DNA of 53,464 nucleotides from Nitrospirota bacterium (GTDB lineage: Bacteria > Nitrospirota > Nitrospiria > Nitrospirales > NS-4): positions 1 to 53,464 of the forward strand of contig VBOD01000107.1 in the NCBI GenBank assembly GCA_005877615.1. Reading direction: 5' to 3'. Positions 8,333 through 12,451 of the stretch are shown here, one piece after another (the stretch's first letter is position 1; the number at the start of each line of letters is the position of its first letter). Below the pieces are notes generated by a model, which worked only from the letters and a program-made list of their open reading frames with translations, ran no database searches and was not told where the DNA came from. A program made the position numbers and the translations under genes.

Positions 8333-8641
8333 TTAGGTCTTCAGTTTCCGTCCCAGACGCTTCTCCACGCTTGCGACCTTGGCGTGCAGGCGCCCCTGGG
8401 CCCCCTTGCGGTAGTCCACCTTGATCGAACACGAGATGCGGTTGCAGTCTTTCTTCATCCGCTCGAAGCACTGCTTCACGACCCCCAACACGTCGTCCCA
8501 GTCGCCTTCCAGGACCGTCCCCATCGGGTTGAGCCGGTAGTCCACTCCGCTCTTGTCCACGATCTCCAGCGACCGGGCCACGTACTTGCCGACGCTCTCC
8601 CCTTTCCCCAACGGCGACATGCTGAACTCCAGAAGCACCAT
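8333..8641 (-). CDS. MTH1187/YkoF-family thiamine-binding protein
   Basis: EFSMSPLG.GESV..YVA, YRLNPMGTVLEG, IKVDYR, KVASVE. Confidence 0.9.
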   Translation of the reverse strand: MVLLEFSMSPLGKGESVGKYVARSLEIVDKSGVDYRLNPMGTVLEGDWDDVLGVVKQCFERMKKDCNRISCSIKVDYRKGAQGRLHAKVASVEKRLGRKLKT

Positions 8642-8662
8642 CGCTCACGTTCCTTTCTTTGA

Positions 8663-8713
8663 GGGGACTGGCTACTTTTCTTCTTTGCGTCCCAAGAAAA
8701 GTTGCCTGTCCCC
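8663..8713. repeat. REP-like palindrome, copy 1 (GGGGACWGGCTACTTTTC type)
   Basis: ggggactggctacttttctt (8663-8682) pairs with aagaaaagttgcctgtcccc (8694-8713), 2 mismatches; near-identical to 10656-10697. Confidence 0.85.
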
Positions 8714-8835
8714 GTTTTCTGTCTCTCAGATACACCACTTCGCCCCAGAAAACCAGGCCCATCCGAACCCTCGCCCCTTCACCCCTACCGAAATTTTCCT
8801 CCCGGTTTTACCTTTTGCTGACCTCCCGAGTCTTA

Positions 8836-8864
8836 TTGACAAGACAGTCGGAGCGGCTTACTGT
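8836..8864 (+). promoter_or_regulatory. sigma70 promoter for the coiled-coil gene
   Basis: TTGACA-17 nt-TACTGT, followed by GGAGG and ATG 8887. Confidence 0.7.
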
Positions 8865-8886
8865 TCAACGTCACGGCGGAGGCGGC

Positions 8887-9300
8887 ATGGATCAGGAACT
8901 TGTTCAGTACCTCGAAGAGCGATTTGACCGCCAGGAGCAACGACTCAACGCTCGATTCGATCGGATTGAACAACGACTAGACGGGCACGACCAGCGGTTC
9001 GAGCAGATCGACCGGCGATTCGAGGGGATTGACCGCCGCTTTGATGAAGTAAATGACCGGATCGAAGAGGTCAAGCGCCACAGCGGCGTCCTGATCGAAG
9101 ACCTTCGTTACCAGGTCCGGCTTGTGGCCGAGGGGTTCGCGACCTTCGTGGAAGGGCGATATGCTCAGGACCAGACTCGTATTGACGAACGCTTCAACGA
9201 AACCCAGGCGTTGCTCCGCACATCGTTCGAGCACCTCACTCGGCAAGACGACCAGCTCCGCCAGCGCGTGGAGAACCTCGAACAGAGGGATCAGAGTTAG
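8887..9300 (+). CDS. Heptad-repeat coiled-coil hypothetical protein (137 aa)
   Basis: GGAGG then ATG 8887; repeats RFDRQEQ/RFDRIEQ/RLDGHDQ/RFEQIDR/RFEGIDR/RFDEVND; C-terminal LRQRVENLE. Confidence 0.85.
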   Translation: MDQELVQYLEERFDRQEQRLNARFDRIEQRLDGHDQRFEQIDRRFEGIDRRFDEVNDRIEEVKRHSGVLIEDLRYQVRLVAEGFATFVEGRYAQDQTRIDERFNETQALLRTSFEHLTRQDDQLRQRVENLEQRDQS

Positions 9301-9351
9301 GTCCCTCTTCGCCCAGCAGCCTCCGCAAATCTTGCAGAAGTCACATCAGCT

Positions 9352-9449
9352 CCTCTCCCCTGACAGGAGAGCCCTCCCGTTATCCCTCCCCCCTTGCGGG
9401 GGTCACACCATCCCCTCTCCCCTGGCGGGAGAGGGTCAGGGTGAGGGGG
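9352..9449. repeat. Three copies (two degenerate) of a CCCTCTCCC...GGGAGAGGG-AGGGTGAGGG palindromic repeat
   Basis: cctctcccctgacaggagag, ccctcccccttgcgggggg, and cccctctcccctggcgggagagggtcagggtgagggg; related copy at 18873-18920. Confidence 0.8.
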
Positions 9450-9454
9450 CATTT

Positions 9455-9502
9455 TCATTGCGAGCGTAGCACCGCGTCATCGCGAGCGCAGCGAAGCAAT
9501 CT
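9455..9502 (+). repeat. CGTC-tagged palindromic repeat halves
   Basis: tcattgcgagcgtagc (9455-9470) and cgtcatcgcgagcgcagcgaagcaatct (9475-9502), resembling the widespread CGTCATTGCGAGCG...GAAGCAATC repeat. Confidence 0.7.
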
Positions 9503-9554
9503 AACAGCAGGGATTCGGATCTGAAGACAGAGGCGGGAAGAAGCGAAGGGGGAA

Positions 9555-9641
9555 ATGGCGGCTGACTCTGAAATTAAAGAAGAAAGGCTAGAGGTTTTCA
9601 GCGATGATGAAATCGCGAAGGGTTATACACTTGATACCTAG
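9555..9641 (+). pseudogene. 28-codon ORF or truncated 5' gene remnant
   Basis: AAGGGGG SD then ATG; MAADSEIKEERLEVFSDDEIAKGYTLDT*; AT-rich compared with flanking genes. Confidence 0.4.
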
Positions 9642-9737
9642 TGCATCGCAGACGTCTGGAATATGACCCCTACCCATTCGGAAATGGAGCCAGTCCCCTG
9701 CTTCTGCTACACTTCCTTGCCATAACCGGAGACATCC

Positions 9738-10598
9738 ATGCGGGAAGAACGCCTACCGTACTATTACGAGGTGCTCGAGCTCCGACCCTCCGCATCGAAC
9801 GCTGAGATCAAAAAAGCCTGGCTTGAACTGGTGCAGGTCTGGCATCCCGATCGCTTTCACCATTCATCCAACCTGCACCGTAAAGCCGAAGCCCGAACAC
9901 AAATGATCAACCAGGCCTACCAAACCCTCAGCGACCCCTTGGCACGCGCACGTTATGATGCCATCACACGAAAAGCAGCCGCGTCCAAGCCACCCTCGCG
10001 CCCATCGCCTCCACCACGCCCTCAACCCACCCCTCGACCCCGCCAGGAATTCAGAGGTCCCCAATCCCTCATCATCCTCTCTCGGCCGGGTCAACCTAAA
10101 ATCCCGGTGCCCGCGATTCAAATGCTCGTCGACAGCAATGAGCACAGCCCCTACGACTTTCGCCGTCTCGTTCGAATCGCCGGGACCATTCGCCAAACAC
10201 TTCCCGCCGGTGACTATGCCATTGCTGAAGCCCCAGGACTGTTTTGCGTGGAGCGCAAGCCCGTGGCAGAGCTGTATGCGTCGACCTCGACTTCATCCGA
10301 TAACCGCGCTCGATTTCTGCGCGAACTCGAACGACTCCTCCCGTTCCCTTATCGGTTTATGATGATCGAAGGCCGGATCGACCAGGCCCAGGGAAAAGGG
10401 CGTTTAAGCGAATATCTCAAAAACGGAGTGATGGATTTCCTGGATGCCATCACGCTGAAATATGGGATCCAGGTTATTTTTGCAGATACCCGTGAAGAGG
10501 CGGAAGAACGCGTCGCGAATCTCGCGGCCATGCACTATGCATACTTCTATGCCGAACAAGAGGGACTTGGGCGTTCTCTCAGTGAGAACGATTTATAA
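9738..10598 (+). CDS. J-domain (DnaJ) - proline-rich linker - ERCC4/XPF-type nuclease fusion protein
   Basis: YYEVLEL...EIKKAW...WHPDRF...INQAYQTLSD..ARARYD (J domain); PPSRPSPPPRPQPTPRP linker; VDSNE...TLPAGDY...VERKPVAE...RFLRELERL...MIEG (ERCC4). Confidence 0.85.
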   Translation: MREERLPYYYEVLELRPSASNAEIKKAWLELVQVWHPDRFHHSSNLHRKAEARTQMINQAYQTLSDPLARARYDAITRKAAASKPPSRPSPPPRPQPTPRPRQEFRGPQSLIILSRPGQPKIPVPAIQMLVDSNEHSPYDFRRLVRIAGTIRQTLPAGDYAIAEAPGLFCVERKPVAELYASTSTSSDNRARFLRELERLLPFPYRFMMIEGRIDQAQGKGRLSEYLKNGVMDFLDAITLKYGIQVIFADTREEAEERVANLAAMHYAYFYAEQEGLGRSLSENDL

Positions 10599-10655
10599 AC
10601 GAAGAGGACGCGCTAGCCGATGGCACAGAATTGGGGTTCGCCGGGGGTTAAGAAG

Positions 10656-10697
10656 GGGGACAGGCTACTTTTCAAAGTCGAAAAGTAGCCTGTCCCC
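10656..10697. repeat. REP-like palindrome, copy 2; may also act as terminator between convergent genes
   Basis: Perfect 18-bp stem ggggacaggctacttttc-aaagtc-gaaaagtagcctgtcccc. Confidence 0.88.
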
Positions 10698-11327
10698 TTA
10701 CATCCCTTTCTGCTCGGCTTTCTTCTCGACCTTGGGAAATTCTATCTTCGCGTGAAGCTTGACCTTTGCTACCGCATCTCGCAGTAATTGCTGCCGCTTT
10801 TCAATATGAGGCTCGGTCGATTGGAGGTGCGCGCGGTACGCATCCAGCCATTCCAAAAACACCTCGAAGCGCTCGTCGAACAGGGGCTCAAGGTCCTCAC
10901 GCAACCGTTTGGCCAGGGCGGGCGACACGCCGCTCGTGCTGATCGCGATCCGGAGGGGGCCCCTGGCCACTAGCGCGGGCATCGTGAAGGTCGAATACTC
11001 CGGCTGGTCGGTGGAGCAGAGCAGGAAGCCCTTCTGCTTAGCCAGATTGTAGAGATCACGGCTCAAGACGTCGTCGGTTAGGACCGTGTTGATCACGAGC
11101 CAGATCCCCCCGTCCACATCGGAGGCCTTGAAGCGCCGGCCCCTATGTAGGACTCTCGCCGAGGCCGCAAGGACCTTGAGCTCCTCGGACAGCGTGGGGC
11201 TGATGACCGTCACCCTGGCGCCGGCTTCGAGGAGCCGGTTGGTCTTCTCCGTCGCTTCATCGCCGCCACCCACCACGATGCACGGCCGGTCTTTCACATC
11301 AAGATTGATCTGGAAGCCAAATTTCAT
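10698..11327 (-). CDS. Precorrin-2 dehydrogenase/sirohydrochlorin ferrochelatase (SirC/Met8/CysG N-terminal type)
   Basis: CIVVGGG..A..K, VTVISP, FTMPALV.RGPLRIAISTSGVSPALAKRLRE. Confidence 0.88.
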   Translation of the reverse strand: MKFGFQINLDVKDRPCIVVGGGDEATEKTNRLLEAGARVTVISPTLSEELKVLAASARVLHRGRRFKASDVDGGIWLVINTVLTDDVLSRDLYNLAKQKGFLLCSTDQPEYSTFTMPALVARGPLRIAISTSGVSPALAKRLREDLEPLFDERFEVFLEWLDAYRAHLQSTEPHIEKRQQLLRDAVAKVKLHAKIEFPKVEKKAEQKGM

Positions 11328-11905: not shown

Positions 11906-12451
11906 TTACGGCTCGGGGATGTCCGAGTCCAGTTCCACGTTCCAGTAGAGGTAGTCCCGCCAGCTCTCCGGAGTGTTCCGGACCCCGATCGTGATCGTCA
12001 CTACCGGGTTCCACTTCGGCTTGAGCGGCTTCCGCATCAACTGCATGCCCGCCTCCTCCGGCATCCGCCCGCTCTTCCGATTGTTGCACCCCCAGCAAGC
12101 CGTGACAATGTTCTCCCAGGTCTTTTTCCCGCCCTTCGCGATCGGAATCACATGATCGAAGGTGAGGTCCTCCGTCCGGAACTTGTGCCGGCAGTATTGG
12201 CAGCGGTTCCCGTCCCGGGTGAAGATATTGATCCGGGAGAACTTCACGGAGCGGTGGGCTTCGCGGATCCTGACCAACTTCAACAGCCGCATAACCGCGG
12301 GCAGCTTGAAGGAGATCGAGACCCCGTGGATCTCACGATCATAGACCTCCAGCACCTCGACCTTCCCCTGCCAGAGCAGGGTGATGGCCTTCTGCCAATT
12401 CACCACGCGGAGTGGTTCGTAGGTGGCGTTCAAAAGTAGAGTCAGCTCCAT
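11906..12451 (-). CDS. HNH endonuclease (McrA-like)
   Basis: LLLNATYEPL, FSRINIFTRD..CQYC, TFDHVIP..KGG..TWENIVTAC..CN.RK. Confidence 0.92.
   Translation of the reverse strand: MELTLLLNATYEPLRVVNWQKAITLLWQGKVEVLEVYDREIHGVSISFKLPAVMRLLKLVRIREAHRSVKFSRINIFTRDGNRCQYCRHKFRTEDLTFDHVIPIAKGGKKTWENIVTACWGCNNRKSGRMPEEAGMQLMRKPLKPKWNPVVTITIGVRNTPESWRDYLYWNVELDSDIPEP

Follow-up and report, generated by a model that had tools for sequence, protein, structure and literature searches.

The stretch considered here (hereafter the window) is the 53,464-nucleotide contig VBOD01000107.1 of a Nitrospirota bacterium (assembly GCA_005877615.1). An open reading frame (ORF) at 9738-10598 on its + strand encodes a 286-amino-acid (aa) product in which an N-terminal J domain is joined to a C-terminal nuclease domain of the ERCC4 type; protein and gene are referred to below as J-ERCC4. 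The gene begins with an ATG preceded, 6 nucleotides (nt) upstream, by GGAG. Its frame is open for just four codons above the ATG, and the ORF is matched at 100% in the source genome. The gene and its parts are as follows.

9738..10598, + strand: J-ERCC4 fusion coding sequence, stop codon included, supported by the ORF list, both Pfam domains and the ratio of nonsynonymous to synonymous substitution rates (dN/dS)
9762..9959, + strand: J domain, residues 9-74 (Pfam DnaJ), with the HPD motif at residues 36-38, nt 9843-9851
9975..10052, + strand: Pro-rich flexible linker, residues ~80-105, read in the sequence and marked by a low predicted local distance difference test score (pLDDT) in the structural model
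10053..10085, + strand: conserved RGPQSLIILSR segment, residues 106-116, leading into the nuclease domain and delimited by family conservation
10128..10520, + strand: ERCC4 (XPF/Hef/Mus81-type) nuclease domain, residues 131-261, placed by Pfam, alignment to Hef 1J22 and Foldseek
10560..10595, + strand: flexible C-terminal tail of the form G-x-G-R-x-L-x-E-x-D-L, delimited by conservation in the fusion family

Profile searches establish the identity of both domains. Pfam DnaJ (PF00226) matches residues 9-74 with E 1.2e-16 and 61 bits against a curated cut-off of 27.8, and Pfam ERCC4 (PF02732) matches residues 131-261 with E 3.7e-10 and 40.3 bits against a curated cut-off of 24. No further Pfam family, HhH included, was found in the protein at E <= 10. 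An ERCC4 profile search of the source genome returned the same span at 42.3 bits, and this is the sole ERCC4 domain encoded there. A sequence search of the PDB gave many J domains for the N-terminal part (e.g., 2dmx, E 1.1e-9) and, as the sole match to the C-terminal part, the nuclease domain of Hef (1J22). Among the NCBIfam models, those for DnaJ (TIGR02349, 57.8 bits vs 377.2) and CbpA (PRK10266, 28 vs 403) match the J domain only, as do the full-length HscB and DjlA models, far under their cut-offs; for the C-terminal part there are weak matches from the archaeal Xpf and Hef models. On these equivalog scores the protein has no G/F region, zinc finger or DnaJ C-terminal client-binding domains. 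Some database members of the family are labelled CbpA; this identity was rejected because PRK10266 matches the J domain only.

The active-site signature of ERCC4 nucleases is GDXnERKX3D plus an upstream DxRE, which J-ERCC4 matches in part with D132-S-N-E135, G158-D-Y, E172-R-K174 and E178. The putative active site, as read from the sequence, comprises D132, E135, D159, E172, R173, K174 and E178. In the alignment to Hef 1J22, DSNE falls on DSRE, GDY on GDY and ERKPVAEL on ERKSANDL, so the last Asp is correctly read as Glu and the Arg of DxRE as Asn. The initial annotation of the window, made without database searches, had described a J domain, a Pro-rich linker and an ERCC4 core without HhH2, and had pointed out both of these deviations. 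Pfam, the Hef alignment, AlphaFold2 and Foldseek agree with it on the architecture, the deviations are upheld, the HPD is intact and every motif that it listed is present: HPD (36-38), VDSNE (131-135), GDY (158-160), VERKPVAE (171-178), RFLRELERL (192-200) and IEG (210-212).

The predicted fold is in accord with these assignments. An AlphaFold2 model built from a 60-row alignment (mean pLDDT 84.9) consists of a four-helix J domain (helices 9-12, 21-35, 44-65 and 67-82, with pLDDT above 90), a linker (pLDDT ~52-53 over residues 81-100), an alpha/beta domain at ~127-274 and a floppy C-terminal tail (pLDDT ~63). The protein stops 25 residues past the ERCC4 match, a span modelled as one helix and the tail. 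When the model was compared with the PDB by Foldseek, the top match was Aeropyrum pernix XPF (2bhn, E 2.4e-7; also 2bgw), accompanied by the Hef nuclease domain (1j22, template modelling (TM) score 0.76 normalised to Hef; also 1j24) and, further down, by Mus81, human XPF and FANCM. The N-terminal part matched solved J domains with TM scores of 0.7-0.87 normalised to the target. With XPF, Hef, Mus81 and J domains all recovered from the structure, the ERCC4 assignment is secure. A two-copy complex prediction for residues 100-286 scored 0.17 against a mark of 0.42; this was a single job and is used neither for nor against any reading.

A word-indexed protein search returned 680 proteins at E <= 0.001. 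The best 120 of these are 65-96% identical to J-ERCC4, mostly ~286 aa long and nearly all equipped with both Pfam domains; the few source names among them are Nitrospirae or Nitrospiraceae. Public names of members are "DnaJ domain-containing protein", "hypothetical protein" or, wrongly, "curved DNA-binding protein CbpA". An exhaustive search of 50%-identity representatives gave 15 clusters below 1e-30, mostly fragments, and beneath them J-domain proteins and small stand-alone ERCC4 proteins. In the ESM Atlas four clusters carry the DnaJ and ERCC4 pair, with Nitrospirota the commonest phylum in all of them. Residue conservation was examined in three sets, namely 117 database members including the query, 74 full-length species-level proteins and 23 stand-alone relatives.

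HPD: 117/117 database; 74/74 species-level; stand-alone relatives are without a J domain
D132: 117/117 database; 73/74 species-level; 23/23 stand-alone
Position 134 (Arg of DxRE): R 13, H 61 and N 33 of 117 database; R in 20/23 stand-alone
E135: 117/117 database; 73/74 species-level; 22/23 stand-alone
D159: 116/117 database; 74/74 species-level; 23/23 stand-alone
E172: 114/117 database; 73/74 species-level; 23/23 stand-alone
R173: 117/117 database; 74/74 species-level; 22/23 stand-alone
Position 174 (Lys of ERK): R 72, K 27, L 13, T 4 and Q 1 database; K or R in 70/74 species-level; K in 23/23 stand-alone
Position 178: E 92 and D 24 of 117 database; E or D in 72/74 species-level; D 16 and E 7 stand-alone

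The putative metal-binding acidic cluster is thus kept across the family, of which the window copy represents the ERK type. Conservation extends to the segment ahead of the nuclease domain, where R106-G-P-Q is kept in at least 99% of the 117 members and L111, L114, S115 and R116 in at least 90%. Whole-gene dN/dS lies between 0.15 and 0.50 in nine orthologue pairs; calculated separately for J domain, linker and nuclease it is mostly 0.1-0.6 and in all cases below 1. Each of the three parts is under purifying selection.

All fusions belong to a single tight family, which is restricted to Nitrospirales. In a species-level genome collection 84 stretches encode a relative, of which 80 were kept. 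Nearly all are titled Nitrospirales, Nitrospiraceae or Nitrospira, including Candidatus Nitrospira defluvii and Nitrospira moscoviensis, and five are labelled otherwise (Acidobacteriota, Terriglobales, Gaiellales, "Nitrosospira" and uncultured bacterium). The nuclease part is present in 44 of the 151 genomes of the order, and in 40 of the 142 that are of high quality. Broken down by family, it is found in 9/20 and additionally in the source genome, in 34/63, in 0/62 and in 0/5; by genus the counts are 9/9 (g14), 10/12 (g10), 11/30 (g7), 4/6 (g1) and 1/7 (g6), with 0/16 and 0/34 in others. Every hit in the order is the fusion, and no stand-alone ERCC4 paralogue was seen in the 151 genomes. The gene is single-copy in every genome apart from fragments in two: in G112 (C11:8895-9567) the orthologue is split over two frames and is a probable pseudogene, and in G054 (C17:99337-99507) an extra 57-residue fragment lies 5 kb from the intact copy. 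ERCC4 domains had been taken to be uncommon in bacteria, which the controls bear out (0/10 bacterial vs 4/4 archaeal).

Where did the nuclease module come from? The small stand-alone ERCC4 proteins, bacterial, plasmid- or phage-borne, are 126-352 aa long and 28-39% identical to J-ERCC4 over the whole of its C-terminal module, matching residues ~105-286 only. They differ in being without the J domain and linker and in keeping the canonical DxRE...GDY...ERK...D/E. The likeness goes beyond the Pfam domain: a strand extension ahead of the nuclease domain is common to fusion and stand-alone relatives, the latter carrying a hydrophobic strand flanked by basic residues, similar to the RGPQSLIILSR segment, and the C-terminal G..R...GD(L/I) tail is recognisable in several of them, ending ...GDL or ...GDI. 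In a few, something else is added at the N terminus, for instance a zinc ribbon or an ExoX-like C-terminal domain, with scores below Pfam cut-offs. One relative with 39% identity, named "ERCC4 domain-containing protein", is encoded among hypothetical genes on a conjugative plasmid of Rhodoferax ferrireducens (NC_007901.1), and among phage families PHROG 3490, "ERCC4-type nuclease", is a match (E 1.7e-7). Hef is matched at E 6.4e-17 and XPF at 6e-8 by a profile built from the nearest stand-alone relatives, a bacterial subfamily, and the only functional labels among the cluster names of ten relatives are "ERCC4-type nuclease" and "DNA excision repair protein ERCC-4". In a FastTree phylogeny of the nuclease module, read from its topology with support values not taken into account, the 74 full-length fusions form one tight clade separated by a long branch from the 23 stand-alone proteins; the fusion therefore looks like a single event, in which a J domain was joined, in Nitrospirales, to a small stand-alone bacterial ERCC4 nuclease of the kind also known from plasmids and phage families. 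Each domain is familiar by itself. A description of their fusion in bacteria, or of an ERCC4 domain in Nitrospira, was not found among the papers listed, and the one publication linking ERCC4 with antiphage defence concerns LlaI/McrBC and is unrelated, in keeping with the earlier impression that the architecture is unfamiliar; confined as it is to Nitrospirales, it is not a widespread characterised family.

J-domain proteins decide where Hsp70 acts. Their HPD docks on Hsp70-ATP and triggers hydrolysis, whereupon Hsp70 clamps a nearby client, and in class-C J proteins the place of action is set by the non-J domain. XPF-family nucleases process branched DNA; ERCC4 enzymes cut it using a metal site formed by the GDXnERKX3D residues and recognise structure rather than sequence. 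The reading to which we incline, tentatively and with slightly less than even confidence, is that J-ERCC4 belongs to the class-C (type III) J-domain proteins, with an ERCC4 PD-(D/E)xK nuclease domain without (HhH)2 as its targeting module, and is a structure-specific endonuclease that recruits DnaK in cis. The ERCC4 domain would bind branched or flapped DNA and cut it through a metal site made up of D132, E135, D159, E172, K174 and E178, as the J domain, on its flexible Pro-rich tether, docks via HPD on DnaK-ATP and triggers ATP hydrolysis. DnaK could then clamp a nearby segment, most simply RGPQSLIILSR or the nuclease domain of J-ERCC4 itself, alternatively another protein bound at that DNA junction, and might thereby control activation of the nuclease, release of its product or its turnover at repair or recombination intermediates. 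RGPQSLIILSR lies ~30 residues from the J domain and has a hydrophobic core with basic flanks, in which we presume a likeness to a DnaK-binding site, as a candidate only. Both DnaK (C6:3072-4859) and DnaJ are encoded in the source genome. Nuclease activity, type of substrate, DnaK binding and the effect of DnaK are what we infer here.

Comparison with known systems clarifies what is shared and what is particular to J-ERCC4. The nuclease domain of archaeal Hef and the crenarchaeal short XPF (1J22-1J25, 2BGW, 2BHN) have the same ERCC4 fold (Foldseek E 2.4e-7 to 2.5e-6) and the same motif order, D-x-x-E ... GDY ... ERK ... acidic. J-ERCC4 differs from them in being without (HhH)2 and helicase, in the last Asp being Glu and the DxRE Arg being Asn, and, across its family, in an ERK lysine that is mostly Arg; conversely, Hef and XPF have no counterpart to its N-terminal J domain. 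Eukaryotic Mus81-Eme1 and XPF-ERCC1 also share the nuclease fold (E 2.7e-5 to 1e-3), and a similar preference for branched DNA is presumed for J-ERCC4 by homology only. These enzymes are large heterodimers with HhH2 and other domains, whereas J-ERCC4 is a 286-aa bacterial protein with a chaperone-recruiting domain. Class-C J proteins such as CbpA, DjlA and HscB likewise carry a J domain with HPD on a module that sets the place of Hsp70 action, but in J-ERCC4 this partner module is a nuclease fold, an arrangement of which no description in a bacterial J protein was found. The SV40 large T antigen is an example of a DNA-processing enzyme that carries a J domain. The fusion, if read correctly, would be direct evidence of bacterial Hsp70 being wired to a DNA-cutting enzyme, either regulating it or clearing it from DNA. 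The protein is small, needs no partner gene and offers clear point-mutant controls (HPD to QPD; D159, K174).

Several observations weigh against an active, structure-specific nuclease of this kind. No (HhH)2 domain was found in the protein, given that no HhH family is seen even at E <= 10. The ERK lysine is mostly Arg in the fusion family, neither K nor R occupies position 174 in 4/74 proteins, D132, E135 or E172 is lost in single members, and the DxRE Arg is retained in only 13/117. With the ERK lysine variable and acidic residues sporadically lost, some members may cleave differently or have no need to cleave. The gene was undetected in 107 of the 151 Nitrospirales genomes, including 62/62 of one family, and is therefore not a core repair function. 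No longer fused forms of the nuclease module were found among proteins of 502-2000 aa, which is weak evidence, and the literature yielded no biochemical or genetic data on any family member. In the window's own family, moreover, shifting contexts with antitoxin, truncated HsdM, NYN, ORF6N and TIR genes (see below) suit an accessory or conflict role no less than a role in repair.

The residue changes bear on a second reading, in which J-ERCC4 is a junction-binding co-chaperone with weak or no nuclease activity, comparable to ERCC1, EME1 and FAAP24, through which DnaK would remodel stalled protein-DNA complexes in the manner of a CbpA analogue. The ERK lysine is replaced in most of the 117 members (R72, L13, T4, Q1), D132, E135 and E172 are sporadically lost, and the DxRE arginine is gone from most members. 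The stand-alone relatives keep the lysine in 23/23 and the arginine in 20/23, so the constraint changed after fusion; judged from these alignments, both residues appear to have become variable at that stage. Targeting through the non-J domain is, in addition, the general rule for class-C J proteins. Against this, four acidic residues and R173 are kept at 73-74/74, which would be unexpected for a purely structural ERCC4 domain; the window copy retains ERK; and the CbpA model PRK10266 covers the J domain only, 28 bits against 403. We consider such a role unlikely, though worth keeping in view.

The setting of the gene differs between lineages. In the window it is recently acquired cargo of a hairpin-bounded 2-kb insertion, the elements of which are listed here.

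8659..10704, unstranded: insertion of 2046 bp with two ORFs, coiled-coil and J-ERCC4, which sister genomes lack at this site
8652..8658, unstranded: left 7-bp direct repeat CCTTTCT (target-site duplication), once in empty sites and twice in the window
10705..10711, unstranded: right 7-bp direct repeat CCTTTCT, once in empty sites and twice in the window
8663..8713, unstranded: left terminal hairpin repeat, arms 8663-8680 and 8696-8713 (-26.9 kcal/mol, z -4.6)
10656..10697, unstranded: right terminal hairpin with perfect 18-nt arms and a 6-nt loop (-38.3 kcal/mol, z -8.2)
9681..9698, - strand: hairpin-arm half-copy, degenerate (3 mismatches to the arm), shortly ahead of the J-ERCC4 gene
8887..9300, + strand: coiled-coil ORF of 137 aa, carried on the insertion together with J-ERCC4 and belonging to a multi-copy family

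In the empty site, seen in G003, G005, G004 and G011, the gene for a thiamine-binding protein (8333-8641, - strand) abuts that for sirohaem synthase (10698-11327, - strand); coordinates show the same arrangement in G008, G010 and G007, and in an RNA-library contig of a relative 8641 is continuous with 10718. Terminal inverted repeats of 26 nt, 88% complementary, are made up of the outer arms (8662-8687 and 10673-10698), and the right hairpin sits between the convergent ends of the J-ERCC4 and sirohaem synthase genes. Empty site, target-site duplication and terminal inverted repeats together identify the segment as a transposon-like insertion. No transposase was found within 8659-10704, where there are two supported ORFs only, neither matching a transposase family. 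The hairpin is dispersed in the source genome (20 arm matches on 9 contigs, 1.82 Mb) and occurs in sister and related genomes as well. The base composition of the gene is also unusual, with a GC content of 0.561 and a third-position value (GC3) of 0.585, compared with a GC3 of 0.78-0.89 in four flanking core genes and a GC of 0.632 for the window; a GC3 as low as this occurs in only 5.5% of 765 long ORFs, and the coding score per codon is about a third of that of the neighbours. The initial annotation had seen AT-richer codons and a repeat-bracketed segment, which it took to fit an accessory or defence role; for the source genome the codons, the repeats and the accessory status all hold: the composition is atypical, hairpin repeats flank the segment at 8663-8713 and 10656-10697, and the 2046-bp insertion is missing from the site in sister genomes.

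Copies from the same genus (G005, G003, G001) and from other genera (G008, G009) lie in other contexts. The genes downstream are shared with G018 only, and in G006 the 3' end of the gene, at a contig end, is beside the sirohaem gene. Copies in different contexts have in common the gene with ~36 nt ahead of its start and ~25 nt beyond its stop, the shared DNA reaching further in single pairs, up to the hairpin repeats; the half-copy at 9681-9698 is common to the G005 copy, which has another context. The DNA of the gene itself is 97% (G005), 96% (G003), 95% (G001) and 94% (G008) identical to the window, compared with 86-91% for flanking core genes in the same genus and 74-77% in G008, a disparity that fits recent exchange. 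Neighbours in this family include a SWIB-domain gene (three loci), DUF4160, a Phd/YefM antitoxin, a truncated HsdM, NYN, ORF6N and TIR-TPR genes. The SWIB/MDM2-domain gene (88 aa, Pfam E 5.4e-29; L038 4694-4957, L039 4189-4452, L040 2339-2602) lies one or two genes upstream of J-ERCC4 on the opposite strand in three genomes of the same genus and is absent at the window copy.

In Nitrospiraceae, by contrast, J-ERCC4 is a stable chromosomal gene in housekeeping synteny. Neighbourhoods were counted across the 80 loci plus the window, names beyond the profile-scanned ones resting on a reading of the translations. A SpoU/TrmL methyltransferase gene is present in 40 loci and convergent at +1 in 33; a 590-aa TPR protein is encoded within a few genes in 44, GalE in 31 and Tex in 17, and aldose epimerase and phosphofructokinase are further recurrent neighbours. 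The recurrence of TPR, TrmL, GalE and Tex indicates a chromosomal, non-island setting, and the synteny is kept between deeply diverged members whose proteins are as little as 57% identical. Within the N. defluvii-like group, 16 loci have an AAA+ ATPase gene co-oriented at +1; its product has 520 aa (Pfam AAA E 2e-31; L058 6927-8486 and 15-16 further loci) and it starts ~70 nt after J-ERCC4 on the same strand, other lineages being without this gene.

These two settings pull in different directions on a third reading, a single-gene effector triggered by stress or phage, in which DnaK would keep the nuclease off until titration by misfolded or phage proteins releases DNA cutting. Such a role would suit a gene that is patchy even within genera (g7 11/30, g1 4/6, g6 1/7), has atypical GC3, travels on a small insertion, appears in varying contexts beside Phd/YefM antitoxin, truncated HsdM, NYN, ORF6N and TIR-TPR genes, and is 94-97% identical across genomes in which flanking core genes are 74-91% identical. 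There is also a precedent: the antiphage protein bNACHT25 is reported to require host DnaJ and to have a DNA-degrading output (PMC12169576), which makes this DnaJ-dependent nuclease defence protein the nearest described concept. Its activation is reported to depend on Hsp40/Hsp70; the likeness to J-ERCC4 is conceptual, without sequence relation. bNACHT25 has a NACHT module and no J domain of its own, and in J-ERCC4 the chaperone link is built into the polypeptide. Other points speak against it. A defence role had been suggested at the outset, but the only PADLOC-DB 2.0 matches are to REase_II restriction-enzyme models, the best at just E 3.5e-4 (17.8 bits) and the other at 0.027. The suggested phage link fared no better, as the nuclease module was unmatched in phage records and the whole protein is without a relative in viral contigs; nor do the neighbourhoods resemble defence islands in Nitrospiraceae, where homologs lie amid Tex, TrmL, GalE, the TPR protein and phosphofructokinase. 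There is no conserved partner or immunity gene, only ~36 nt upstream and ~25 nt downstream being shared between contexts; housekeeping synteny in Nitrospiraceae persists across deep divergence, to proteins only 57% identical; and two genera retain the gene almost universally (g14 9/9, g10 10/12). The effector reading is accordingly improbable on present evidence. A one-polypeptide version of it, in which the cis J domain would load DnaK onto RGPQSLIILSR and hold the enzyme off until free DnaK drops, under proteotoxic stress or a burst of phage protein, strikes us as doubtful to a similar degree. If true, it would make J-ERCC4 a guard-type, compact proteostasis sensor wired directly to cleavage of DNA, or of the genome.

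If J-ERCC4 is instead, as we prefer, a DnaK-recruiting nuclease of branched DNA, which intermediates might it serve? RuvC (PF02075) was found in none of the 151 Nitrospirales genomes, compared with 8 of 14 controls, and at E <= 1 five genomes gave one sub-threshold hit only. RecU was found in 0/5 genomes searched and RuvB in 5/5. With no RuvC or RecU matches, the Holliday-junction resolvase of the order is not identified by these models. In G000:C121 (L118 3819-6182) and G038 (L119 2361-5384) yebC is directly followed by ruvA and ruvB, with no ruvC between; these names were read off the translated sequences. Against such a background there could be a use for a Mus81-like enzyme, and a less likely extension is that J-ERCC4 is a Mus81-like resolvase filling the place of RuvC in the lineages that carry it. 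Replacement of RuvC was rejected as the principal reading, since the gene is undetected in 107 of the 151 genomes, all of them without detected RuvC, and J-ERCC4 is therefore not a general RuvC substitute. The question bears on the processing of recombination intermediates in Nitrospirales, which include the nitrite oxidisers N. defluvii and N. moscoviensis.

Lastly, that J-ERCC4 is a selfish mobile nuclease gene, spreading itself into intergenic sites like a homing endonuclease, is very improbable: the unit common to differing contexts is essentially the gene alone (window ~9702-10620), it sits between two same-strand genes that abut in empty-site genomes, disrupting neither, and its nuclease domain belongs to the PD-(D/E)xK superfamily, but the 7-bp duplication, the hairpin ends of a dispersed family and the unrelated second ORF point to mobilisation in trans, the position is stable and under purifying selection in Nitrospiraceae, the gene is single-copy everywhere besides the G054 and G112 fragments, and ERCC4 nucleases read structure rather than sequence.

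The DNA shared between contexts includes one further feature, immediately ahead of the gene.

9702..9737, + strand: conserved element, TTCTGCTACACT...GGAG, which may be a promoter of the gene's own or a 5' leader and is the sole upstream DNA common to differing contexts

TTCTGCTACACT occupies 9702-9713 in the window; its family-wide form is CTCCGYTACACT, which in most loci precedes the start by 25-35 nt. CTCCGYTACACT occurs once per genome, before J-ERCC4 only, in three (loci L120, L121, L122) of the five complete or near-complete genomes searched; it was undetected in the other two, and the pattern TTCAAYCTRG-N14-24-YTACACT gave 0 matches in the five genomes. Being found solely upstream of J-ERCC4, CTCCGYTACACT is gene-specific and not a regulon mark, and membership of a shared stress regulon was rejected on the same ground. 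The element is more conserved than an ordinary promoter would require. Scans of 9250-10800 for consensus (sigma-70) promoters and for terminators gave 0 sites each, and Rfam on 8500-10900 gave two chance-level hits, far under gathering scores. Soil metagenome runs contain near-identical DNA. Contigs from RNA libraries of four studies include parts of the gene at 92-99% identity, lending weak support to transcription of J-ERCC4 or its close relatives; the support is weak because such libraries can hold DNA, and regions left bare by the contigs are given no weight.

Other components of the insertion recur in the source genome and beyond. It is bracketed by two full copies of a hairpin family resembling repetitive extragenic palindromes or miniature inverted-repeat transposable elements, with 18-nt arms and loops of 6 to ~50 nt, found on G000 contigs C17, C26, C64, C96, C127, C130 and others. 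The coiled-coil ORF (8887-9300) contains RF(D/E)xI(D/E)xR-like repeats and has sub-threshold Pfam coiled-coil hits only. It gives five tblastn matches on four contigs (C56, C109 with two, C74 and C69), its own copy included; a homologue lies two genes upstream of J-ERCC4 in G001, and there are many DNA matches in related genomes. A short repeat at ~9410-9450 (match span 9410-9470) has numerous further copies, 87-97% identical, in related genomes, some of them from another family of the order, and is the part best covered in RNA-library contigs (depth 22, 13 and 8 in three runs); there is a second, diverged copy at 9331-9371, and Rfam gave no match to the repeat. Beyond the insertion, an HNH endonuclease gene at 11906-12451 (- strand; 181 aa, HNH_5 E 9.4e-18) belongs to the conserved core neighbourhood, being 90% identical in G018, with its DNA conserved across the order.

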